This document shows positions 5,687 through 64,000 of a DNA stretch of 64,000 nucleotides, one piece after another. Origin of the DNA: a virus. Under the pieces are notes generated by a model. The model saw nothing but the letters and a program-made list of their open reading frames with translations. It was not told the DNA's origin and made no database searches. A program made the position numbers and the translations under genes. Positions within the stretch are counted from its first letter, which is position 1; every line of letters begins with the position of its first letter. The stretch lies in the UHGV virus genome UHGV-1370141, one strand, 5' to 3'.

Positions 5687-5698
5687 ACAGACTCCTAA

Positions 5699-5722
5699 CC
5701 TCCTACCCTTGCGGGTAGGAGG
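5699..5722 (+). other. GC-rich stem-loop (cctcctaccc / gggtaggagg, loop ttgc) with T-run only on the plus strand; sits just 5' of the terminase SD on the minus strand
   Basis: 10-bp perfect inverted repeat between minus genes 5734..7374 and 3578..5686. Confidence 0.4.
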
Positions 5723-5733
5723 TCTTTTATTTT

Positions 5734-13824: not shown

Positions 13825-13860
13825 TACCTACCTCCGTAAAGGAGGTAGGTACTTTTTTAT
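13825..13860. terminator. bidirectional intrinsic terminator (stem tacctacctcc / ggaggtaggta, loop gtaaa, flanked by A-run and T-run)
   Basis: 11-bp perfect stem between convergent genes; same stem reused at 37529..37553. Confidence 0.65.
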
Positions 13861-37528: not shown

Positions 37529-37560
37529 ACCTACCTCCTTTCGGAGGTAGGTACTTTTAT
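37529..37560. terminator. bidirectional intrinsic terminator (stem acctacctcc / ggaggtaggt, loop tttcg)
   Basis: Same stem sequence as terminator at 13825..13851; flanking A- and T-runs. Confidence 0.65.
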
Positions 37561-39474: not shown

Positions 39475-40515
39475 TTATACTGCGACGGGGGCCGCAATAT
39501 GTGGATGAGCTTGATAACCAACTAATTCGAAGTCTTCGTATTTGTAATCGAAGATAGAATCCGGTTTACGTTTGATAACCAGTTTAGGTAACGGGTAAGG
39601 CTCACGTGTAAGTTGAAGTTTTGCTTGTTCCAGATGGTTAGAATACAGATGAACGTCTACACCACTATAAACCAACTCGTCTGGAACCATGTTCAGTTGT
39701 TGAGCAACGATGTATGTTAACAACGCGTACGAAGCGATGTTGAACGGTAAACCTAAGAATACGTCGTTTGATCGCATCAGGAAGAAACACGAAAGCTTAC
39801 GACGCGGAATACCTTCACGATCTAAAGTTTCATGAAGTCGTTCTTCATCATCAATATCTTCGTGTTTAATAAGCGGTGCGCTCGCAAATTTTTCCGGTTC
39901 GTTTACTTCGTACCATTCCAGTCTCTCAAGCAGTGACATTTCCGTTGTGTAGAATTGGAAGTAGTTGTGACACGGGTTAAGTGCCATATCGTCCAAGTCA
40001 CTTACGTTCCAGGCACTAACAATAATACGGCGGGAGTCAGGGTCTTCGAGAAGTTGTTGGATAACTTTGCTGATCTGGTCGTGAGATTTGCGATAAATAA
40101 CGATACTTTCTTCAGGGTTGTCCTTTGCAATAGTACCAACGTAGCGATAGCCTCGTTCTCTCAATACGTCTTTACTACGCTCGTCCCAAAGATAAACCAG
40201 TTTGGTATCCATCCATTCCCGCCACTGGTGTCCGTAGACAGGTCCTAATTCCCCTTCCGCATTCGCCCACTCGTTCCAGATTCTTACCCCATTCTCTTGC
40301 AGGTACTTCACGTTAGTGTCACCGTTCAAGAACCATAACAGTTCATGAATGATACTTTTCAGGTGAACCTTTTTCGTAGTAACTAATGGGAAACCTTCTT
40401 TCAGGTCAAAACGTAGTTGGCGACCAAATACAGAAAGTGTCCCTACACCTGTACGGTCTTTCTTAACAACGCCGTTATCCAGAATGTCTTGCATTAACGC
40501 TAAATACTGTTTCAT
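39475..40515 (-). CDS. thyA: thymidylate synthase (ThyA family) with two insertions, 346 aa
   Basis: MKQYL...[12 protein letters not shown]...FPLVTTKK...[12 protein letters not shown]; [13 protein letters not shown]; active-site [10 protein letters not shown]; [16 protein letters not shown]; [30 protein letters not shown]. Confidence 0.9.
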
Positions 40516-40823
40516 TAGATTTTGTCCTTTTCGAGTTCAGTTAAAATTTCAAATAGGTCTGCGTTGGATTGCAGTACGACTTCACTGCCTTCTGCTACAA
40601 CGGTAATTGAAGGCTTCTTACCACGTAGCAAGAACTCCCAACGCATTGTTCTTACGTGGCTGTCGAGTAACTGCTTTAATTTGTGGTTAACTTCGACTTC
40701 CAATTTGCCCAGTAACTGTGGTGTAATAGCTTCGCCTGAGTTTTTGTTATAAAGCGTACGCACTAAAGAACGTAAAGAATAGCCAATGCATTGCGAAATT
40801 GCCCAACCCGAATAGTTTTCCAT
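40515..40823 (-). CDS. hypothetical protein (102 aa)
   Basis: ORF overlapping thyA start by 1 nt. Confidence 0.5.
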
Positions 40824-41384: not shown

Positions 41385-41849
41385 TTAGTCACGAGACTTT
41401 ATTTTAAGGTACGCAACCGCAGCTCCCATGATTGCAATACCGGCACCCCAACCTATCCTTTCTATTACACTCATATCGTCCCATCTTTTCTCTTCGTTAC
41501 GTCGTTTGGCCTCGTCTGCCCGTTCTCTCCACATCGCTTCGCGTTCCAGACAGCTGGGATTTATTTCCTCTTCACAACGACGTTTCCGTTCTTCTTCCCC
41601 AATCAGTTCTTCTAAATAGAGTCTCGTTTCTTCCACAGCTTGCTCATAGACGTCTATGCGATCGGGAAGAATTCTCCTGTGAGAGGCTTTGTTGCGAACG
41701 GAAGCAATCATGTGGAGTTTCCGTTCGTATTTTGGTTCGAGAAGATAGGCTATGCTTTTGGTCTTCTCATGAAGTCCACGACCAGTACCGCCGAGTTTTT
41801 CCACAAGTTCTTCTACAGAAATTGCAAGATCGAGAATATATCCACGCAT
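41385..41849 (-). CDS. hypothetical protein with C-terminal transmembrane helix (154 aa from ATG; track ORF 41385..41900 starts at a TTG)
   Basis: ATG at 41849 has GGAG SD 8 nt upstream; C-terminal IGWGAGIAIMGAAVAYL hydrophobic. Confidence 0.5.
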   Translation of the reverse strand: MRGYILDLAISVEELVEKLGGTGRGLHEKTKSIAYLLEPKYERKLHMIASVRNKASHRRILPDRIDVYEQAVEETRLYLEELIGEEERKRRCEEEINPSCLEREAMWRERADEAKRRNEEKRWDDMSVIERIGWGAGIAIMGAAVAYLKIKSRD

Positions 41850-42299: not shown

Positions 42300-42336
42300 A
42301 AAATAAAAATACCCTACTCCCAGACAGGAGTAGGGT
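42300..42336 (-). terminator. intrinsic terminator (stem accctactcc / ggagtagggt, loop cagaca, U-run on minus strand)
   Basis: 10-bp perfect stem downstream of 42342..43001; identical stem reused at 61133..61158 and near 61750. Confidence 0.6.
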
Positions 42337-42341
42337 AGGTG

Positions 42342-48650: not shown

Positions 48651-48665
48651 AACGACTCCTTAGCT

Positions 48666-48705
48666 AGGGTAGGGGATTACCCTACCCTAACGCTTTTATT
48701 TCTTT
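48666..48705 (+). other. stem-loop (agggtaggg / ccctaccct, loop gatta) with T-run only on the plus strand, inside a minus-strand gene string
   Basis: 9-bp perfect stem; oriented as a terminator for antisense (plus-strand) transcription. Confidence 0.4.
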
Positions 48706-51360: not shown

Positions 51361-51372
51361 AAAGTAAAAGCT

Positions 51373-51410
51373 ACCCCTAGACCACAAGGTCTAGGGGTAA
51401 TCTTTATTTT
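51373..51410. terminator. bidirectional intrinsic terminator (stem acccctagacc / ggtctaggggt, loop acaa)
   Basis: 11-bp perfect stem with flanking A- and T-runs between convergent genes. Confidence 0.65.
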
Positions 51411-51414
51411 CACG

Positions 51415-52299
51415 CTAAAAACCAGATATAAAGGTGGGCGCAATCCATCGCCACTCCTGCCAGCGTGGTCCTGTCATTGGCCCACACCAGACCCGTTTCC
51501 AATGTGCCCTGCGTATGTGCGCTGCGCGATGAGGCGTTAAACAGATTCTCCTGCCTTCCCTGCGTTGTTTTTCTAAGTCTTCGCGTTGTACTGGACTTAC
51601 GTCAACAACGACAGGTTCTCTCCGTGGGAGGATTTCTGTATCAGGTACGTAACGTGTCGTTCTACCACGGTATTCCCGTCTCTCGCGTTCCGATTTCTTC
51701 ACCCGCGAGGAAAGATATAAACCGATATGTACCTCATCCAGAAGTTCCTCGTCCTTTGACTCGTTAGCAAAGTAAGGCTCTAAACTAACAAAGTCATCTG
51801 CCTTTCTGTTGAACCGATAAATCTTGGTTGTCCAACAGTGCCGCTGATTTATCTCCACCCATCGTAAAACGAACAATACTTCTTCACCTTCGAATTTACG
51901 ACGACCGATAAAGAGCGTAGCAGGAAGTTCGTTAATCTTGACAGTCACGGAAAAGGTGAATGAAGGGATGGCTTCAATCCACGCGTACGGAATATCCGTT
52001 AAACGTTCTGTGTCTGCAAGTAATCCCATCAGCTCTTTATCAGAGATAATTTCAATACCTGCGTATTGCCAACCCAAACCTAACGACTGACGAATAGAAT
52101 ACGGCACCTGTTTGGTGGTGCCGAACTCACGGTACGTTGGGTCGTTAACGGGCAGAAAGGTTACGGGAAGTTGTCTCTTGTGTTCCCTGACAAACGTTAG
52201 AAAACGATCTTCTTTCAGACCAAACAAGTCTTTGTGTGCAGTCTCTATAGCTTCACTAATACGTCGAAGCGTGTCTCCATAAATTCTGCGTCTTAACAT
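51415..52299 (-). CDS. hypothetical protein, member of tandem paralog pair (294 aa from ATG at 52299; track ORF extends to 52422)
   Basis: ATG with AGGAG SD 7 nt upstream; C-terminal motif AAHIRRAHWKRVWCGP...WIAPTF shared with 52310..53242. Confidence 0.55.
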   Translation of the reverse strand: MLRRRIYGDTLRRISEAIETAHKDLFGLKEDRFLTFVREHKRQLPVTFLPVNDPTYREFGTTKQVPYSIRQSLGLGWQYAGIEIISDKELMGLLADTERLTDIPYAWIEAIPSFTFSVTVKINELPATLFIGRRKFEGEEVLFVLRWVEINQRHCWTTKIYRFNRKADDFVSLEPYFANESKDEELLDEVHIGLYLSSRVKKSERERREYRGRTTRYVPDTEILPRREPVVVDVSPVQREDLEKQRREGRRICLTPHRAAHIRRAHWKRVWCGPMTGPRWQEWRWIAPTFISGF

Positions 52300-52309
52300 T
52301 ATAATTCTC

Positions 52310-53242
52310 CTAGTCTTGCGTGTGGGGTACGTAGCCTCGGACAAATGTCGGTGGAATCCAGCAAAGTTTTCTTTTTCTTTCACCGTTTCTTGGGCCAACC
52401 CAGTATCTACGCCAGTGTGCACGACGTATATGTGCAGCTTTGGCGTGTTTGATACCCTGCATGGCTTTCAAGTCGGTGTTAAATCCTTTTAGATATTTTA
52501 CTTGTCCTGGTGTGATATCAACCTTAACATCACGTTCTCGCGGTTTAACGTCGTAACTAATACTACCGTTCTTTTTGATTTCCCTGAACTTAATATCATT
52601 AAAAGACTCCCTGTAATTAGGCGGGATTAGCGTGCACAGAAATATCATCGAAGTGGCGGCTTTGGCCAGAGATAACCATAACATCTTCTCTTCTTCGGTC
52701 TGTACGCCAGTTGTATAATCAATTTCAACAAGCCCGTTTCCTACACTACGAAGCTCTAACGAACAAGTGGCAATTGTGGTAACTCCTTCTGTTAACCCGT
52801 AATCAGTATTTGTAGCGATTATAATAAACCTTTTCTTCCCATTTTTTCGATAGCCGAGAAAGAAAGTCTCATCCTCTTTACCTACGTCGATTGCCACAGT
52901 CCATGCGGGTATAAAGTCCAACCATTCTTCAGGGAATTTACTGGGCATCTCAGTCTCGAAAACAAGTTCTCTAAGTGCTTGGTTGGATATTAAGGAAACC
53001 CCGCCATATAGCCACCCGATTGCCAACGTTTGTGCGTGAAGGGAACGTGGATCTTTGAGACCTAACTCAGTGTCGTAGGGTATAAAGGAATTGGTTAAAT
53101 GGTTACGATTCTTTTTTATCCATTTCGAGACAGGATTTTCTTTTGTTTGGTTTTCTTCCATGACATTTTCTAGATGCTGACTCCCCATTTGTCTAAGACA
53201 GTCTTTAATACCTTTTACTTTTTTACTTTTGTACAAATACAT
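52310..53242 (-). CDS. hypothetical protein, member of tandem paralog pair (310 aa)
   Basis: ATG with AGGAG SD; C-terminal AAHIRRAHWRRYWVGP...WIPPTF and internal GWLYGGVSLIS blocks shared with 51415..52299. Confidence 0.55.
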   Translation of the reverse strand: MYLYKSKKVKGIKDCLRQMGSQHLENVMEENQTKENPVSKWIKKNRNHLTNSFIPYDTELGLKDPRSLHAQTLAIGWLYGGVSLISNQALRELVFETEMPSKFPEEWLDFIPAWTVAIDVGKEDETFFLGYRKNGKKRFIIIATNTDYGLTEGVTTIATCSLELRSVGNGLVEIDYTTGVQTEEEKMLWLSLAKAATSMIFLCTLIPPNYRESFNDIKFREIKKNGSISYDVKPRERDVKVDITPGQVKYLKGFNTDLKAMQGIKHAKAAHIRRAHWRRYWVGPRNGERKRKLCWIPPTFVRGYVPHTQD

Positions 53243-58135: not shown

Positions 58136-58591
58136 TCAGTTCAAACACATTGTCAGATACTGATCGTAGGCGTCTAATAAAGCTTGCCGGTCAGAGCGAT
58201 AATTCCACAACAACGAATTCAGTTTACGTGATAAATCCCGACTGATTTCTTGTGGCGTTAACGCTTTGTCGTCTAATAACATCTTTTCTGGAACGGAATG
58301 TAATTTAGGAATTTCAAATCGTTCGCAGATAGGTGCTAACATCGGTGGATTCCACCCGCGTTTGACTGCTTGTTGATTTAAGTTTCGTGTGTAAAGATAA
58401 ACGTAATAAGCGTATGTATTCACATCCGCAACATATTCCCGCATCGCGTCTTTATCAATTTTCCAATTTAGCATGATAGGCGGCGCTGGCGGAGGTTGTA
58501 ACGCAGTATAGGATGGCCGTTTACCGGGTTCTCCATAGCCATTACTCACCAAACCCACGCACAAAATCATGATGAATAACAGCGATTTCAT
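58136..58591 (-). CDS. secreted, Pro-rich protein with N-terminal signal peptide (151 aa); possible spanin-like partner of the upstream membrane protein
   Basis: N-terminal MKSLLFIMILCVGLVSNGYG hydrophobic signal; Pro-rich mature N-terminus. Confidence 0.45.
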   Translation of the reverse strand: MKSLLFIMILCVGLVSNGYGEPGKRPSYTALQPPPAPPIMLNWKIDKDAMREYVADVNTYAYYVYLYTRNLNQQAVKRGWNPPMLAPICERFEIPKLHSVPEKMLLDDKALTPQEISRDLSRKLNSLLWNYRSDRQALLDAYDQYLTMCLN

Positions 58592-58594
58592 CAG

Positions 58595-59098
58595 TTACTC
58601 CTTAGGTGAGGATAACGTCTTTATGATCTCCTGACGGAAACTGTTAGCGTTTTGACTACCAACAGGTCGCGCCGAAGCTTCTTTGCGTTGTTCTGGTGTT
58701 GAAGCTGGGCTAACAGGAGTTTCTGGTTTCTTAGGTGTTAAATCTTTGGTAGAGTTGTCTTCTTTTACCGTGCTGTACCCACTTTCATATGGCGGTTTCT
58801 GGCCGAGGCAAATAAAGAGCTTGTCGTATAATCTACCATTATCATCTTTCAGTTTGTCACGATCTTGCTTCATCTCTTGGTAAGATTGCGACATGTATTG
58901 ATCATGAGATTGTACGGTAACGAGCTTGTGAAACTGCACTACGTACGCATAGGAGACGAAAGCCGAGTAGGATAACAAGACCGTGATGATTAAAGTCATT
59001 ATCTTGTTTGCTCTTGATACGTTTTCTCCTTCTCCTGGTTTAAATGCTTCCATCAACATCTGAATGAAGAACGGAAGCACTTTAAGAAATGAACCCAT
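58595..59098 (-). CDS. membrane protein with single TM helix, coiled-coil and Pro-rich C-terminus (167 aa); possible i-spanin-like
   Basis: TM IMTLIITVLLSYSAFVSYAYVV; ATG with GAGGTG SD. Confidence 0.45.
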   Translation of the reverse strand: MGSFLKVLPFFIQMLMEAFKPGEGENVSRANKIMTLIITVLLSYSAFVSYAYVVQFHKLVTVQSHDQYMSQSYQEMKQDRDKLKDDNGRLYDKLFICLGQKPPYESGYSTVKEDNSTKDLTPKKPETPVSPASTPEQRKEASARPVGSQNANSFRQEIIKTLSSPKE

Positions 59099-59123
59099 TG
59101 CTCACCTCGGAGTATTTTTAATT

Positions 59124-60497
59124 ATGTTAGACTTACAAGGTTTTATTCAGATACCGGCTCTGTTTGACAATCAGGACGGCGTCACCGCTCCGGTAGGTGA
59201 GCTGTCTGATCTGACCCTCTCGTACGCGAAGAGTAAACAGACGTTTACTAAATCCAATCTGCAAGTGCAGTTGGTGACATTTACGTCTAAACGAGAAAAA
59301 CAGACGGTTGTTGTTCCAGCCGAGTTTTCTGATCATATTCTAACCGTTTCTCAATGGATTTACCAGCAAGCCATCTTGGGGAATCTGAGAAATGACGAAC
59401 TTGAATTCCAGCGCCTATTATTAGGTCAATTCCAAACAACCATTTCCGGTGTCCAGTCCGGTGCGATGATCCAGACGAACAGTAATTGGTTCCCACGTTG
59501 GGTGAGCTGGAAATATGAAGCAACTGCAGATCAAGTACAAGATGACACTGATGTAGATAACCAAATCATAGTTTGGTTCTCGGATGAAGACTTCGACCAG
59601 GACTACACGGGTTTTGAAATCGAAGTACAGATGCCGATTGAGCCAATCGACACATTCTTGGCCACAAAGTCAGTCGTTGAAAAAGCGATGGAAGGGTTTA
59701 ACCTTACCGAACACCATAAGAAAATCAACGAGTTAATGGCAGGGTTCCCGTATACTGCCATCCAAACTAACTACTACACCTGGCATGACCAAGAAAACTA
59801 CGAGTCAACACTGGTTATTCCAATGTCGGTTATCATTTACGGACGTGCAGGAAAAAACCCAACGAAAATAAAGCAAGCGTTGCGTGAACATATTCTTGCA
59901 AACTCCAGCTTTACGGTTCCGATCGGGGTGAAGGTATTCCCTGAGATCTTTACCACTACGAAATTCACAATGGTTCCGGGGTGGAAAATCCGTGGTATAC
60001 CGAATGAGGAAGACGTGGCGGCTCTCTATTCCCCCATCCTTCCATATGATTTCTGGGTCAAAGCCATTACAAAGTTTGGGGAATGGTCTGATCAGTCTGT
60101 TGCGGAAAGAAATAGTAAAACGGTAAGCAAACCGACGACGGATGTTACCGATTTACCGACCGTGTACAAATCACTGAACATGGTGGTTATCAGTGGTCCT
60201 GAAAACGACACTCGTAAGAATACCTTACACGAAACGTTACCAGACTACGCACTGATTGCAACAACAAACCCAGACATTGCACGAATGTCGAAATCCACCA
60301 CAGAATGGTTAGCGTTGTTCTTCCAGGCGTTAATAGCAGCGGAAGAATACCATCCGTATCAGACCAGTCTGGATGTCGTGAAACTCGTTGATGAAGCCGA
60401 TCCAGATAACTATTTCTGGGTGTTCGAATACGATAACGTCGAATATCGCATACTGTCTCGTAAATCGAAATGGTACACTGAAATCGACGAGGAGTAA
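59124..60497 (+). CDS. hypothetical protein (457 aa from ATG at 59124; track ORF starts at 59064)
   Basis: ATG at 59124 preceded by GGAG; the upstream extension would overlap the divergent gene start. Confidence 0.55.
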   Translation: MLDLQGFIQIPALFDNQDGVTAPVGELSDLTLSYAKSKQTFTKSNLQVQLVTFTSKREKQTVVVPAEFSDHILTVSQWIYQQAILGNLRNDELEFQRLLLGQFQTTISGVQSGAMIQTNSNWFPRWVSWKYEATADQVQDDTDVDNQIIVWFSDEDFDQDYTGFEIEVQMPIEPIDTFLATKSVVEKAMEGFNLTEHHKKINELMAGFPYTAIQTNYYTWHDQENYESTLVIPMSVIIYGRAGKNPTKIKQALREHILANSSFTVPIGVKVFPEIFTTTKFTMVPGWKIRGIPNEEDVAALYSPILPYDFWVKAITKFGEWSDQSVAERNSKTVSKPTTDVTDLPTVYKSLNMVVISGPENDTRKNTLHETLPDYALIATTNPDIARMSKSTTEWLALFFQALIAAEEYHPYQTSLDVVKLVDEADPDNYFWVFEYDNVEYRILSRKSKWYTEIDEE

Positions 60498-60500
60498 TGA

Positions 60501-61124
60501 ATGGCTACGCGTTTACCTCTTTTGGTTCCCGTTAACACAACGGGTTTATTTAAGGTAAAAACACCGTTTACGTTAGCCGAAACGGTTATCTTCACGGTGG
60601 AGGCATCACGTACCTTCCCAGATTTAGTACGTCAGAATATTGATGTTTACAACGAGTATTACAAGCCCGTTGGGTTGGAGCGAGAAGAATATCTTGCTGA
60701 TGCTACCGTTAACGCGTCTATTCTTACGTTTAAATCACGCGATGGTCAAGTCGTTTATATCCCCGACACTTACGTAGAATCGTGCCCCGGTTTATCGGGA
60801 ATCGCGTACCAGCGTAATGTGATGGTGGTGGACTTATCGTTTGTACCGGATTATGTAGATGTGTCGGTGATGACTAAAGACGTTTCGGATATTCTTACCC
60901 GTACGTTGGGTATCGACCCGAAAGTCGAAATCACGACCATGGAGTATGAAGGGAAAGTGACGGAGGAGCAACACCTGCAAATGGAAGCGGCTCGGAAAAG
61001 GAAAATTCGAGAGGCTATTCCGTTGTCAGAACAGGTTACTTCGTTGACAAACGAAAACAAAAAATTAAAAGAGTTAAACAACCAGATGTTAGAGATTCTT
61101 AAAGCTAACGGGTTAGTTAACTAA
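60501..61124 (+). CDS. hypothetical protein (207 aa) with C-terminal coiled-coil
   Basis: ORF 3 nt after upstream gene; terminator downstream. Confidence 0.55.
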   Translation: MATRLPLLVPVNTTGLFKVKTPFTLAETVIFTVEASRTFPDLVRQNIDVYNEYYKPVGLEREEYLADATVNASILTFKSRDGQVVYIPDTYVESCPGLSGIAYQRNVMVVDLSFVPDYVDVSVMTKDVSDILTRTLGIDPKVEITTMEYEGKVTEEQHLQMEAARKRKIREAIPLSEQVTSLTNENKKLKELNNQMLEILKANGLVN

Positions 61125-61132
61125 AAGAAATT

Positions 61133-61170
61133 ACCCTACTCCTTTTCGGGAGTAGGGTAGCTTTTATTTT
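61133..61170. terminator. bidirectional intrinsic terminator (stem accctactcc / ggagtagggt, loop ttttcg)
   Basis: Same 10-bp stem as 42311..42336; T-run follows. Confidence 0.65.
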
Positions 61171-61717
61171 AAATGTCGACTTCTAGTTTACGGTAATCAA
61201 TGACGCCTTGAGCAATCATAGCAGCAACATCGTTCCAAGTACGAAAAATGAAGTAAACGGTATCCCCGTTTAAAAAGATATTGGATTCTTTATCCGGGAA
61301 ATCATTTTCGCTGAGGTAGTAGTAGGGTTTGTCGAATGGGAAGTCACGCTCATCAGAGGAACCAAGTACCGCATAACGATTGCCACAGTCGAACAGAATC
61401 TTCCAACCTGATACTTCACTATTAACATCAACACGATCGACGATTTCAACAGTAATCGGAGAATGGTCAAGAAAACTGATCGTGATTCCCTCGCAATACC
61501 GTTTGAATCGCCAAATATCTGTGGGTACAATTTCAGACGCTGCTATAAGGGAATAAAGTTGTGTTGTGGTGATCTTTTTGTAAACGCTATTGCCGTCTCC
61601 CAAACGGTCAAATAAGAAATTAGCCAGGAAATTTATATCCTTTAAACGTGTACGGAAAACAGAACCACGGCGAATACCATAAGCCAGGTGGGTTAAATAT
61701 TCAGATGATGGAAACAT
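61169..61717 (-). CDS. hypothetical protein, member of second tandem paralog pair (182 aa)
   Basis: Shares MFPSSEYLTHLAYGIRR and LNGDTVYFIFRTWNDVA blocks with 61780..62712. Confidence 0.55.
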   Translation of the reverse strand: MFPSSEYLTHLAYGIRRGSVFRTRLKDINFLANFLFDRLGDGNSVYKKITTTQLYSLIAASEIVPTDIWRFKRYCEGITISFLDHSPITVEIVDRVDVNSEVSGWKILFDCGNRYAVLGSSDERDFPFDKPYYYLSENDFPDKESNIFLNGDTVYFIFRTWNDVAAMIAQGVIDYRKLEVDI

Positions 61718-61729
61718 TTTAATACTCCT

Positions 61730-61772
61730 AAGATGGAAAAAAGAATTAACCCTACTCCCGGAGGAGTAGGGG
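61730..61772 (-). terminator. intrinsic terminator (stem ccctactcc / ggagtaggg, loop cggag, U-run on minus strand) between the two paralogs
   Basis: 9-bp stem followed on minus strand by T-run, then AGGAG SD of 61169..61717. Confidence 0.5.
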
Positions 61773-61779
61773 ACTTAAA

Positions 61780-62712
61780 TTACTTTTTGGCTTGACCCAG
61801 GTTTTCAAGAACCAGTTCACGAATGTACTTTTGAGTACGTTTCTTCGGCGGTAAAGCCATAAGGGTGTCAACAATTTCCTGACCGCCGATAACCTTGCTG
61901 ACGAGTTGTTGAACTTGGAAGAGTTCCGCTTCTTCGTCACTGATCTCATTAGCTTGGTCTTTCTGACACAGCGCTTCTACCAGGTCAGCTACGGATATTT
62001 CTTTTTCGTCACCAGGGAAATCCAGGTTTAACGATTCGAAAACATCACGTTTAACGAGCACAGATTTCAGATCATCGTAGTCTTCGCAAACGGCGACTTC
62101 TGTACCAGGGACGGTTTCTTCTTCGTCTTGATCTTCATTCTCAGCGGAGAGGTAATTTACTTCTGTTGCGTGGAACGTTGCGTCAGCTTTTCTCAGGACG
62201 TAGCTCACATGCGCCCAGTTGCTCAGGATGAAGTAGACGACGCCCCCATTTAATCCGATATTGCCTTGGCGAAGCTCGAGAGCAATTTCCAGGCGGCGCG
62301 AAATCTGCCCCAAGTCAAAGAAAGACTCGTCGCGTGCCGCAACAACTTCGTACTGATTCACCCCTTGTTCTACAACAACGAACCAGTTATCCGGGAGAGG
62401 ATATGGGTTGGGCATGAGAGAATGTTCGATCCCTACGCTTGGGTCAACAGTAACGGATGTATGCCGCATTCCCATGGAGAAGTTGAACATATCCCCATTT
62501 TGAACCGCAATTGCATTGTCGATTGGAAGAATTTTGGTGGTACGATCGATAGAGAAAATCACTTCTTGCGTAATTGAAGACTGATTACTGCCTAGGAAAT
62601 GGTTGCGCAGAAAGGCAGCGGTTGCACCTACGCTGGTTTGCAGCATATGGTAGTTATAACGACGACGTAGAGTGTTAGCCAGTTCGTAAATTACTTCAGA
62701 TGGAAAAGTCAT
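61780..62712 (-). CDS. hypothetical protein, member of second tandem paralog pair (310 aa)
   Basis: Shares MTFPSEVIYELANTLRR and LNGGVVYFILSNWAHVS blocks with 61169..61717. Confidence 0.55.
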   Translation of the reverse strand: MTFPSEVIYELANTLRRRYNYHMLQTSVGATAAFLRNHFLGSNQSSITQEVIFSIDRTTKILPIDNAIAVQNGDMFNFSMGMRHTSVTVDPSVGIEHSLMPNPYPLPDNWFVVVEQGVNQYEVVAARDESFFDLGQISRRLEIALELRQGNIGLNGGVVYFILSNWAHVSYVLRKADATFHATEVNYLSAENEDQDEEETVPGTEVAVCEDYDDLKSVLVKRDVFESLNLDFPGDEKEISVADLVEALCQKDQANEISDEEAELFQVQQLVSKVIGGQEIVDTLMALPPKKRTQKYIRELVLENLGQAKK

Positions 62713-62765
62713 TTTAATAGTCCTCTTTAGGTTTGTTCAAATCAACTAAGGGTTTTGTAAAAAAG

Positions 62766-63245
62766 TTAAAAGAGTGGGAGGTTACGCCATTGACCTACGG
62801 AATAGAAAGCCTTCGGATGTTTACGAATATAGTCCTTCGCTTCTTTCGGTAACCAGCGTTGACCTGCACGTTTCTGCTGGGCAACAATAACAGCCAGCAG
62901 CAAATAAGGATTCTTTGACCCAGGGAATTTTGCATTCGTTTCTAGCGCAATATCCAACATCGATTCCCATCCCAGTGTTTTAGACTGAGCGGGTAAACGG
63001 TCTTCGATATACATCAACCAGTTCATGATTTCTCTGGGTTTAAATGGACAGGTGTAGTTCGCCCAGCTTATCATGAAAAACTTAATAATCTTTGCAAATA
63101 CCCACAACGGTATAGCTACGAATACACAGAAAATCACCATTTGTTTCGTAGGGGCGTTTACGAACGTCACTAACAGTAGAACGGTGATTACCTCTAATAC
63201 CACGAACCAAAAGCGGGTTGGGTAACGCCAGATAAACTTCAACAT
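62766..63245 (-). CDS. integral membrane protein (159 aa, two to three N-terminal TM helices)
   Basis: Hydrophobic FWFVVLEVITVLLLVTFV and VIFCVFVAIPLWVFAKII. Confidence 0.5.
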   Translation of the reverse strand: MLKFIWRYPTRFWFVVLEVITVLLLVTFVNAPTKQMVIFCVFVAIPLWVFAKIIKFFMISWANYTCPFKPREIMNWLMYIEDRLPAQSKTLGWESMLDIALETNAKFPGSKNPYLLLAVIVAQQKRAGQRWLPKEAKDYIRKHPKAFYSVGQWRNLPLF

Positions 63246-63264
63246 ACCTTTGCTCCTTTAGGGG

Positions 63265-63302
63265 AATAAATAAAAGTACCCCTAATCCGATTGGATTAGG
63301 GG
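63265..63302 (-). terminator. intrinsic terminator (stem cccctaatcc / ggattagggg, loop gatt, U-run on minus strand)
   Basis: 10-bp perfect stem downstream of 63309..63818. Confidence 0.6.
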
Positions 63303-63308
63303 CAAGTA

Positions 63309-63818
63309 TTAGAAGAACGGTTGGTTTGGAATCACAGCAAATTCCAGAACGAAGATGTGTTCAGGGGCACCTGCCTGACGCCAGATTTTGTGCGTAGTCG
63401 CCAGTTTCTCCAGAATCGTCAGGAAGCTACGCTGGCAGTAGGTGTTCTCACCCAACAGCAAATTCTGTAACTCTACAGTGGCTTCCATATACGCTTCTTT
63501 AAAGACCTGATTCGGATTGTATTTACCGGTATGATGCCACAACAGAACTTTCCCTTGCTCTGTGTCTCTCACGGCCGGACGTAACCCGCAAATCCACAAC
63601 AAGGCAAGGTTGACGTTCCAGTCAAACTCTAAGCCTTCTTCTTCGTCATCACCGAAAGCCGTTTTAAGGGCATCGTAAAACTCATGTCGCGTTGCAAAGT
63701 CTTCGTCGGACTTTATCTGGTCTTCGTTACTGCTACGAACGATACTGTACACGTCCTGGGCAGTAATTTGGGTAGCCTTAGTGATACCTTTATACCAATC
63801 GGTTACAACGATGCTCAA
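63309..63818 (-). CDS. hypothetical protein (169 aa), TTG start
   Basis: TTG start with AAGGAG SD 7 nt upstream; overlaps stop of small upstream ORF. Confidence 0.5.
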   Translation of the reverse strand: MSIVVTDWYKGITKATQITAQDVYSIVRSSNEDQIKSDEDFATRHEFYDALKTAFGDDEEEGLEFDWNVNLALLWICGLRPAVRDTEQGKVLLWHHTGKYNPNQVFKEAYMEATVELQNLLLGENTYCQRSFLTILEKLATTHKIWRQAGAPEHIFVLEFAVIPNQPFF

Positions 63819-63991
63819 AGGGTGACTCCTTGTTTAAATGGAAAACTGGTGTTTATCGTATCCCAAATTCGGTTAACTTCTGCCAACTGAATCTGGCGTT
63901 CTGGTTTCTTCGCAAACGCAAGCTGACGAGATGCTACAGGCTTGTTGATTTTCGCACTGTAGAACGTTGCATCTTTCATAAAGCTCGCCAT
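63815..63991 (-). CDS. small hypothetical protein (58 aa) translationally coupled to 63309..63818
   Basis: Hand translation MASFMKDATFYSAKINKPVASRQLAFAKKPERQIQLAEVNRIWDTINTSFPFKQGVTL; below track threshold; close to window end. Confidence 0.3.
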   Translation of the reverse strand: MASFMKDATFYSAKINKPVASRQLAFAKKPERQIQLAEVNRIWDTINTSFPFKQGVTL

Positions 63992-64000
63992 TTCTCGTTG

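Follow-up and report, generated by a model that had tools for sequence, protein, structure and literature searches.

The window analyzed here is the whole stretch of DNA, 64,000 nucleotides in length, and belongs to an uncultured clade of SPN3US-like jumbo phages. This clade, with genomes of ~222 kb, appears as circular "plasmids" in clinical and animal Enterobacteriaceae assemblies, and a megablast search of the region against cultured phages gave no match. Two adjacent genes, referred to below as the long and the short gene, were found on the minus strand exactly where the original prediction had placed them. These genes and the features surrounding them are collected in Table 1.

Table 1. 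Coordinates of the two paralogous genes and of associated features in the window.
Feature	Position	Strand	Description
Long paralog	61780..62712	-	310 aa, span including the stop codon; syntenic homologue of SPN3US gp201 (PHROG 11818)
Short paralog	61169..61717	-	182 aa; corresponds to the N-terminal domain on its own
Hypervariable cassette (long gene, codons ~12-200)	62113..62679	-	N-terminal alpha/beta domain minus its first 11 residues
Acidic linker, aa 187-207	62092..62154	-	Disorder predicted; net charge -8
Conserved C-terminal helical domain, aa 208-310	61783..62091	-	Acidic; ALPxKKRT motif in its basic tail; domain not present in the short paralog
Intergenic terminator-like hairpin	61750..61771	-	CCCTACTCC-TCCG-GGAGTAGGG, then UUAAUUCUUUUUU; same stem in relatives
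Upstream direct-repeat copy bracketing the short gene	61739..61771	.	Repeat search, two families
Shine-Dalgarno AGGAG	61725..61729	-	7 nt upstream of the ATG of the short gene; read from the sequence
Bidirectional terminator-like hairpin	61132..61159	.	11-bp stem TACCCTACTCC; separates the short gene from the convergent DUF7194 gene; downstream repeat copy
DUF7194 protein gene, synteny anchor	60501..61124	+	Pfam PF23824, E=1.7e-70; homologue of SPN3US gp202 / phiKZ ORF161 (virion protein)

The long and short genes arose by an old tandem duplication within the gp201 family, and the pairwise and profile alignments supported the homology that had been proposed for them. Residues 2-181 of the short protein were aligned by BLASTP with residues 3-186 of the long one at 25% identity and 43% positives (E=1e-8). 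The Smith-Waterman score of the pair was 98, and 2000 shuffles gave a mean of 31.6, a standard deviation of 4.8 and a maximum of 65 (z=13.9). Profile-profile comparison with hhalign yielded a probability of 95.8% and E=7.8e-9 over 171 columns. Additionally, an AlphaFold2 model of the short protein (pLDDT 80.9, pTM 0.79) was obtained, with a predicted globular alpha/beta fold that matched only the N-terminal domains of gp201-family members in a Foldseek search of BFVD (TMq 0.64-0.67). The idea that the similarity is due to chance or composition, or that the short reading frame is not a gene, is virtually untenable: the low identity and the lack of any tblastn match for the short protein among cultured phages would fit it, but it is refuted by the alignment statistics, by the confidently predicted fold shared with the family N-domains, and by the conservation of the short reading frame, which has a ribosome-binding site and is under purifying selection among relatives (dN/dS 0.05-0.25). 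No third copy was detected with a family HMM among all six-frame ORFs of the window.

The long protein consists of an N-terminal alpha/beta domain (~185 aa), an acidic disordered linker and a conserved helical C-terminal domain. The alignment with the short copy stops just before the linker. Both of the sequence blocks noticed originally in the two proteins do align, but the second of them is C-terminal only in the short copy and lies in the middle of the long one (~aa 152-170). By contrast, the acidic stretch of the long copy (aa ~190-213) had been taken for an insertion; it lies beyond the end of the short copy and is in fact the linker that opens a 124-aa C-terminal extension. Residues 177-207 of the long-protein model had pLDDT values below 50, and the C-domain was also modeled with low confidence (pLDDT 43-66). 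The C-domain is 88-100% identical across the clade (entropy 0.15), and A286, L287, K291, R292 and T293 in its tail are invariant across genera. In the N-domain, W110, V159 and W166 are invariant in the family, D128-E129 are nearly so, and the beta core is conserved.

Scans of both proteins and of SPN3US-type gp201 against Pfam, NCBIfam and PADLOC (the latter at E<=1) gave no matches, and a profile search of PDB sequences returned only noise (E>=0.78). Likewise, no counterpart of the N-domain fold was found among solved structures, and its BFVD Foldseek matches were family members only.

The assignment of the long gene to the gp201 family was clear. Its protein matched PHROG 11818, a family of annotated function unknown, with E=6.5e-30, residues 3-307 covering profile positions 2-293 of 295, and the Seoulvirus and Erwinia homologues with an hhalign probability of 99.7% (E=4.6e-27). 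Seoulvirus and Machinavirus homologues were also recovered by tblastn. SPN3US gp201 (SPN3US_0201, 377 aa) is homologous to the long protein over its full length, and further homologues are Erwinia phage ChrisDB gp222, Machina gp212, Wellington gp226 and a 408-aa protein of phiEaH2. Members of the SPN3US gp201 family share with the long copy the N-domain, the acidic linker and the C-domain with its ALPxKKRT tail, while the SPN3US and phiEaH2 versions have an additional middle domain of ~70-100 aa. The family is narrow, with ~15 genuine representatives among 1.84 billion proteins, and on these searches is confined to SPN3US-like jumbo phages. No mention of SPN3US gp201 was found in the literature.

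Three matches from the representative library (P0067, P0070 and P0071) were discarded as artefacts, being repetitive proteins that match many unrelated Pfam families.

A single gp201 copy was found beside gp202 and gp203 in Seoulvirus, Erskinevirus, Machinavirus and Wellingtonvirus, and its position is fixed in every SPN3US-like genus examined. It is the last gene of its operon, in the same orientation throughout, and convergent with the DUF7194 (gp202) and gp203 baseplate genes. The operon, on the strand opposite gp202/gp203, also holds acetyltransferase, macro-domain and transglycosylase genes. gp202 and gp203 are homologues of phiKZ ORF161 and ORF157, respectively, and gp203 is tail-associated and essential. 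The long protein and these gp201 homologues are ~20-30% identical, against 66-82% for the neighboring gp203, and gp201 is the fastest-diverging of four neighboring genes across genera. In the clade of the window, the short copy separates the long gene from the DUF7194 gene; this extra stand-alone N-domain gene occurs only in that clade, the SPN3US-type relatives carrying one copy. A ~190-aa gene upstream of the Machinavirus homologue and a ~88-aa gene upstream of the Seoulvirus homologue were considered as hidden paralogs and both rejected (hhalign probability <1%).

Of the 17 clade loci, counting the window, 15 have the short gene; the two without it, L016 and L029, may represent one lineage. 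Its profile matched the long copies with an hhalign probability of 95.8% and the outgroup homologues with 93.7%, and PHROG 11818 in the N-domain only (E=0.037). The short copy ends at the domain boundary and thus has neither the C-terminal domain nor the ALPxKKRT tail. Since it is without the conserved C-domain, it is a domain-only offshoot of the gp201 family and not a full member.

To characterize the variation of these genes, alleles were compared among 17 related loci, window included; L028 was excluded from the allele tables on account of its frameshifted genes. A contig search with the DUF7194 protein confirmed no locus. Eight allele types of the long N-domain were found reassorted over three backbones, with type A on all three. 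Identity in this domain was 48-100% (median 60%), in the C-domain 88-100%, and in the backbones 80-100%. Between the window and L004, DNA identity fell to 38-70% in the cassette and was 95-100% outside it, with sharp edges, and dS was ~1.5 in the cassette vs ~0.1 in the flanks. The recombination breakpoints in the long gene were sharp and fell at codons ~12 and ~200-208. Homologous recombination exchanges the N-domain, with the conserved first ~11 codons on one side and the conserved C-domain on the other, and the whole two-gene module also moves between backbones. In a comparison with E. coli p98232, no low-identity stretch of the 64-kb window was longer than the block that holds the cassette (62001-62800).

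The variation was not distributed evenly within the domain. Per-residue entropy was high in helix 2, the loops and the last helix, and low in the beta core and residues 1-12. The dN/dS ratio was 0.15-0.44 in the cassette vs 0.0-0.1 in the flanks and was below 1 in every pairwise comparison, a pattern that could reflect old allelic lineages together with relaxed constraint. Moreover, the short-gene alleles assorted independently of those of the long N-domain: short type A was found both with N type A and with N type B, which share 51% identity. This speaks against the long and short proteins forming an obligate, co-evolving complex. The hypervariable, recombining nature of the shared domain had been missed by the original prediction.

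The hairpin with a recurring stem that had been described between the two genes was confirmed. It has a perfect 9-bp stem with six G-C pairs and a 4-nt loop, and its MFE in context was -22.1 kcal/mol (z=-3.4). It has the stable, G+C-rich stem-loop of an intrinsic terminator; its tail, UUAAUUCUUUUUU, is an interrupted U-tract that passes a lenient terminator scan and is not canonical. The exact stem was also found at 42312-42335 and 61134-61157, and a one-mismatch variant at 63280-63301. Allowing at most one mismatch, there were 15 matches to the stem vs 7.5 expected, and no shuffle reached 15. An Rfam scan of positions 60000-64000 found nothing.

The two terminator-like hairpins flanking the short gene form part of a direct repeat. 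The left arm at 61739-61758 pairs with 61123-61142 (20 nt, 90% identical) and the right arm at 61763-61771 with 61149-61157 (9 nt, 100% identical). In L005 the flanking repeats were 22 nt (95%) and 19 nt (89%) long, and in L016 and L029 a single terminator element was found, with no short gene. Repetition of the terminator element would allow the short gene to come and go as a cassette, by loss in L016 and L029 or by gain in the other loci. That it behaves as a present/absent cassette between two terminator copies had been missed by the original prediction.

With regard to expression, only ~30 nt separate the intergenic hairpin from the ATG of the short gene, and no sigma-70-like promoter was found by scanning between them; the short gene would therefore depend on read-through. 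Upstream of the long gene there was a single sigma-70-like site, which overlapped the start codon. The same scan found no promoter-like sites beside the hairpins, and 12 sites in the region vs 13.2 expected. It is plausible, judging from the sequence, that the two genes may be expressed differently, as was originally suggested; the hairpin would probably attenuate read-through, the short gene then being expressed at a lower level than the long one.

A similar arrangement is that of the PeSL (promoter-early stem-loop) cassettes in hyperplastic regions of T4-type phages. In these, repeated stem-loop terminators flank non-essential genes of unknown function, and recombination between the repeats explains the presence or absence of genes among close relatives (Arbiol et al. 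2010, PMC2839356; PMC4122927). The likeness to the PeSL cassettes lies in the short gene bracketed by two terminator copies and in the two relatives with a single element and no gene. By contrast, the strong sigma-70-like early promoter that they join to the stem-loop was not found here, and phages of the phiKZ/SPN3US type, to which this one belongs, have multisubunit RNA polymerases of their own. The main variability is also located inside a gene, as a domain cassette, and not only between genes.

Because the shared domain is the fastest-changing and most often swapped piece of the region, it is likely to be a host-interaction module and not a housekeeping gene. Tentatively, we infer that the long protein is a modular specificity factor, in which a variable binder is joined to a conserved adaptor domain, and that the short gene is a duplicated free binder. 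The N-domain would act as the specificity (binding) module and track a polymorphic target. This would most likely be a host factor that varies between strains, for example a defense or takeover target, and the invariant C-domain would couple the N-domain to a conserved partner. The duplicated free N-domain would provide a second, independently evolving specificity without C-domain coupling. A bolder and rather doubtful extension of this reading is that the gp201 N-domain represents a new fold and the exchangeable specificity cassette of an unrecognized host-interaction (counter-defense or takeover) system of nucleus-forming-type jumbo phages; the conserved C-domain might link the variable binder to conserved machinery of phage or host, the free N-domain peculiar to the clade might be a second, uncoupled binder or a decoy, and the repeated terminators might be the recombination sites that move the cassettes.

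Other functions were weighed against that of a specificity factor. We consider it improbable that the proteins are low-abundance virion or baseplate accessories, or assembly factors of fibers or adhesins, with the hypervariable N-domain setting receptor specificity. The genes do adjoin, and are convergent with, the baseplate/tail genes gp202 and gp203, and allele reassortment with sharp breakpoints is typical of adhesins; the mosaicism of gp38 in T4-type phages is reportedly an example. The adhesin/tail-fiber genes gp38/gp37 of these phages likewise show allele exchange at the level of domains, with conserved flanks as recombination anchors, but they have no sequence or fold similarity to the long and short proteins, which are not known virion components and whose variable part is N-terminal. 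The usual order, a conserved anchor at the N-terminus and a variable tip at the C-terminus, is thus inverted in the long protein, and the short copy has no conserved domain that could anchor it. No fiber-like repeats or beta-helix were predicted in the long or short model, the fold being globular alpha/beta, and the opposite strand and the shared operon described above also speak against a structural role. Finally, the virion mass-spectrometry list of SPN3US (supplement) includes 193, 202, 203 and 214, but not 201. By analogy with this homologue, which is distant (~20-29% identity), the gp201 family is predicted to be non-virion.

It also seems unlikely that the gene has a conserved intracellular role and that its N-domain varies to escape abortive-infection or other immune sensors of the host, without tracking a target. 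This would agree with the maintenance of the gene as a single copy at a fixed position in every SPN3US-like genus examined, with the conservation of the beta core, W110, V159 and W166 across the family, and with dN/dS below 1 together with old alleles, which fits balancing or frequency-dependent selection. However, no such sensor is known, and an extra free copy of the recognized domain would be a liability, yet the short gene is under purifying selection. The present data would fit this reading and that of a specificity factor alike.

It is very unlikely that the genes form part of a cluster for lysis or its timing, where they might, for instance, regulate a holin or endolysin from the cytoplasm. 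Besides an SLT transglycosylase with an endolysin annotation, the same operon encodes a 159-aa protein whose N-terminal segments are hydrophobic, and the genes downstream encode a membrane-like protein (167 aa) and a protein with a signal peptide (151 aa), whose homologues show the lipobox-like motifs LTSC and LVAC (read by eye). This support is positional only, however: no transmembrane or signal segment is present in either paralog, these neighbors have no lysis annotation in PHROGs, and hypervariability is not a known trait of lysis regulators.

To our knowledge, no function is known for the majority of genes in phiKZ/SPN3US-like jumbo phages. As a putative modular specificity factor, the locus is a concrete candidate for a jumbo-phage gene dealing with strain-specific host factors: it is predicted to be non-virion, its N-domain is the most divergent and most exchanged in the 64-kb region, and this domain has been duplicated as a free gene. 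The repeated terminators flanking that gene would offer a simple route to the gain and loss of the cassette. Host-interaction determinants of this clade bear on phage therapy and on the interpretation of the ~222 kb replicons; even with a mundane function, the locus would remain a clear case of mosaicism at the domain level in a jumbo phage.

A further likeness is to the internal proteins IPI-IPIII of T4, which combine a short conserved targeting segment with a highly variable body at a hyperplastic locus, and of which IPI* is an anti-restriction factor. These proteins are packaged and injected, and their conserved N-terminal peptide of ~10 aa is cleaved off. In the long protein, by contrast, the conserved module is the C-terminal domain of ~100 aa, and the protein is predicted to be non-virion.

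The two genes are paralogs. Both were recovered on the minus strand in the ORF listing with exactly the coordinates of the original prediction, and the homology that it had claimed for their products was confirmed. BLASTP aligned residues 2-181 of the short protein with residues 3-186 of the long one (25% identity, E=1e-8), the Smith-Waterman score was 98 against a mean of 31.6 in 2000 shuffles (sd 4.8, maximum 65; z=13.9), and profile-profile alignment, with profiles of the close relatives of each protein, gave a probability of 95.8% and E=7.8e-9 over 171 columns. The two sequence blocks cited as shared could also be aligned with each other. By contrast, the acidic segment (residues ~190-213), previously described as an insertion in the longer copy, is not one: the short protein stops where this segment starts, so the long protein instead carries a 124-aa C-terminal extension formed by the acidic linker and a further domain. 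The long protein is modular. No third copy was found in the window, and the short paralog is restricted to this clade: all its homologues fall in six 90%-clusters of the same phage group.

The short protein received a confident structural model (pLDDT 80.9, pTM 0.79) with four helices, a beta region of eight strands and one final helix; its matches in BFVD were confined to the N-terminal halves of family members (TMq 0.64-0.67). The model of the long protein was weaker (pLDDT 64.9); in it, residues 177-207 form a disordered linker and the C-domain is helical.

The gene content of the window includes split multisubunit RNA polymerase beta subunits, a 2377-aa tail protein, a sheath, a terminase and a UvsX-like recombinase, from PHROG families typical of phiKZ/SPN3US-like jumbo phages. 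No cultured phage matched the window by megablast; the baseplate neighbour was 83% identical to that of Erwinia phage phiEaH2 and 77% to that of SPN3US. The complete assemblies of E. coli 98232 and Enterobacter ludwigii contain the same phage type as circular "plasmids" of ~222 kb, and it is also present on contigs of 220-228 kb, both metagenomic and from Salmonella and Shigella assemblies. Apparently this is an uncultured clade of jumbo phages, related to SPN3US and phiEaH2, whose recording as plasmids stems from a carrier state or contamination. The replicon of E. coli 98232, a strain from human urine (p98232, L030 in the table; NZ_CP173450.1, 221,873 bp, circular, annotated as a plasmid), was 96.8% identical over all 64 kb of the window, and the 222,441-bp E. 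ludwigii "plasmid" 97.7% identical over the 6.5-kb region tested.

Seventeen loci of the clade were collected and compared gene by gene, with the flanking genes defining three backbones. One of them, a 228.6-kb relative (CYGL01000001.1), was left out of the allele tables because its frameshifted genes are probably assembly errors; its long gene, gene g169 and DUF7194 gene are truncated to 194, 105 and 191 aa. The left and right backbone genes were 80-100% identical (medians 84% and 93%) and the C-terminal domain of the long protein 88-100% (median 94%), whereas its N-domain ranged from 48 to 100% (median 60%) and the short gene from 56 to 100% (median 92%). Eight allele types of the N-domain (90% threshold) were reassorted across the three backbones, type A being present on all three and backbone A carrying types A, B and F. 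The DNA breakpoints at the cassette edges were sharp. Compared with one related locus, L004, the window was 95-100% identical as far as codon ~12 of the long gene, 38-70% identical from there to codon ~200, and 96-100% identical again between codon ~208 and the end of the short gene. In mismatched allele pairs dS was saturated within the cassette and low outside it (~1.5 versus ~0.1 for the window and L004), which indicates replacement by recombination and not merely fast point mutation. The dN/dS ratio was 0.15-0.44 in the N-domain, 0.0-0.1 in most flanking genes and never above 1. Variation within the long protein was concentrated in helix 2, the loops at residues 55-108, and the last helix with the linker, while residues 1-12, the beta core (109-165) and the C-domain were conserved. 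The N-domain is a hypervariable, recombining cassette, and its alleles assort independently of those of the short gene. The longest low-identity block between the window and the E. coli 98232 element contains this cassette. Across genera, too, the homologue of the long gene (SPN3US gp201) is always the most diverged of four neighbouring genes (49% identical between SPN3US and SPAsTU, its neighbours 79-91%). The whole module moves too, since in another locus, L027, the upstream backbone gene g159 was only 60-80% identical in DNA to that of the window and the long and short genes together ~86-100%, mostly >90%.

The hairpin reported between the two genes is real; its 9-bp stem is perfect and its folding energy in context is -22.1 kcal/mol (z=-3.4). 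The stem does recur in the window, twice exactly and once with one mismatch. The nine perfect 9-12-bp intergenic hairpins have related stems (TACC(C)TAC..TCC or CCCTA motifs), most with A-rich and T-rich flanks, and form a terminator-like family, seemingly a shared terminator type of this phage. On either side of the short gene lies a direct copy of one such element (left arms 90% identical over 20 nt, right arms identical over 9 nt); the repeats in locus L005 are 22 nt (95%) and 19 nt (89%). Two loci, L016 and L029, lack the short gene, yet have the backbone of L005 and L018 (neighbouring backbone genes 95-100%). Exactly one element lies there between the long gene and the convergent DUF7194 gene, and it joins the sequence of the upstream element to the downstream T-tract, which fits recombination between the two repeats, as loss or gain. 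Between these repeated putative terminators, the short gene is a cassette that is present in some loci and absent from others. This resembles the PeSL-mediated modular shuffling of T4-type phages (PMC2839356), but differs from it in that no sigma-70-like promoter was found accompanying the hairpin upstream of the short gene. This hairpin lies ~30 nt upstream of the ATG (~17 nt before the AGGAG), and UUAAUUCUUUUUU follows it; expression of the short gene therefore most likely requires read-through.

Positions of the genes, hairpins and other features (window coordinates unless stated)
Feature	Position	Strand	Remarks
Long gene	61780..62712	-	310 aa
Short gene	61169..61717	-	182 aa
Hairpin	5698-5723
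Hairpin	13825-13851
Hairpin	37529-37552
Hairpin	42310-42337		exact stem at 42312-42335
Hairpin	48665-48689
Hairpin	51372-51399
Hairpin	61132-61159		exact stem at 61134-61157
Hairpin between long and short genes	61750-61771		arms 61750-61758 / 61763-61771
Hairpin	63279-63302		one-mismatch stem at 63280-63301
Longest low-identity block with p98232	62001-62800
Segment matching both insertion ends	40512-40553		42 nt
Extra gene of p98232	L030 41282-41640		106 aa
Second small indel with p98232	near 41495-41551
Other tandem paralog	51415..52422	-	335 aa
Other tandem paralog	52310..53242	-	310 aa
Candidate lysis-cluster gene(s)	58136-59098	-
Candidate lysis-cluster gene	62766-63245	-
Candidate lysis-cluster gene(s)	L004 4213-4899		in relatives, upstream of the window end
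gp203-homologue ORF	59064-60497	+	477 aa from 59064
Divergent gene overlapping it	58595..59098

The long gene belongs to a phage family that is already catalogued but uncharacterised; its product matched PHROG 11818, of unknown function, along its entire length (E=6.5e-30). Its homologues in other genera are single-copy hypothetical proteins: SPN3US_0201 (377 aa) and that of SPAsTU (302 aa) in Seoulvirus, that of phiEaH2 (408 aa) in Erskinevirus, ChrisDB gp222 and Machina gp212 in Machinavirus, and gp226 in Wellingtonvirus. In every case the gp201 homologue is the last gene of a co-directional run and faces, in convergent orientation, the genes for DUF7194 (SPN3US gp202) and gp203, the latter tail-associated and essential. 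Genes adjoining these homologues were unrelated to the short gene by profile comparison. The family is a narrow one: of the 20 matches that an exhaustive HMMER search obtained among 1.84 billion representatives, ~15 are genuine. Neither protein matched Pfam, NCBIfam, PADLOC or PDB sequences.

The N-domain might serve for binding or specificity, as a module that follows a polymorphic target, which would probably be a host factor variable between strains; the invariant C-domain, whose basic tail has the ALPxKKRT motif, would link this module to a conserved partner. The short protein, as a free N-domain, would then offer a second specificity without the C-domain connection, expressed at a lower level through the hairpin. 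This mechanism as a whole is proposed tentatively, ahead of the rivals below but as somewhat less likely than not. Alternatively, the gene pair may have a virion or adhesin-related role; the supplement to Thomas et al. (2016; PMC5105663) gives SPN3US gp202 and gp203, the homologues of phiKZ ORF161 and ORF157, as virion proteins, and gp201 does not appear in its virion mass-spectrometry table. The long protein could also be a housekeeping protein whose variation represents immune escape. A third rival would make the pair a lysis regulator, and the surrounding genes may, from their predicted products, form a lysis cluster. Phage genomes are already known to undergo tandem duplication and to carry terminator-bounded cassettes; what is new is a domain-only paralog, the demonstration that the N-domain of the gp201 family is a reassorting hypervariable cassette, and the fact that this domain apparently has no relative of solved structure. 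That the locus marks a new host-interaction module of jumbo phages seems rather unlikely.

Additionally, several observations were made on other genes. One gene near the pair encodes an SLT transglycosylase that is annotated in relatives as an endolysin, and another a protein of 159 aa with hydrophobic segments in its N-terminal part. A membrane-like protein of 167 aa, which includes a coiled-coil-like stretch, precedes a signal-peptide protein of 151 aa; homologues of the latter in Seoulvirus and Machinavirus have lipobox-like motifs (LTSC, LVAC), and the two proteins resemble a putative spanin pair. The p98232 element has an extra gene flanked by a 42-nt direct repeat, as one window segment aligns to both ends of the insertion; its origin as a paralog of its neighbour was rejected (E=9.1). 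As listed, the two ORFs of the other tandem paralog pair (25% identity, BLASTP E=1e-24) overlap by ~110 nt, and the downstream one therefore probably starts later than at its called GTG; PGAP gives 885 nt in a relative. The gp203-homologue ORF overlaps a divergent gene, and its start in relatives and in PGAP lies 20 codons downstream (457 aa), at ~59124, which is probably the true start.
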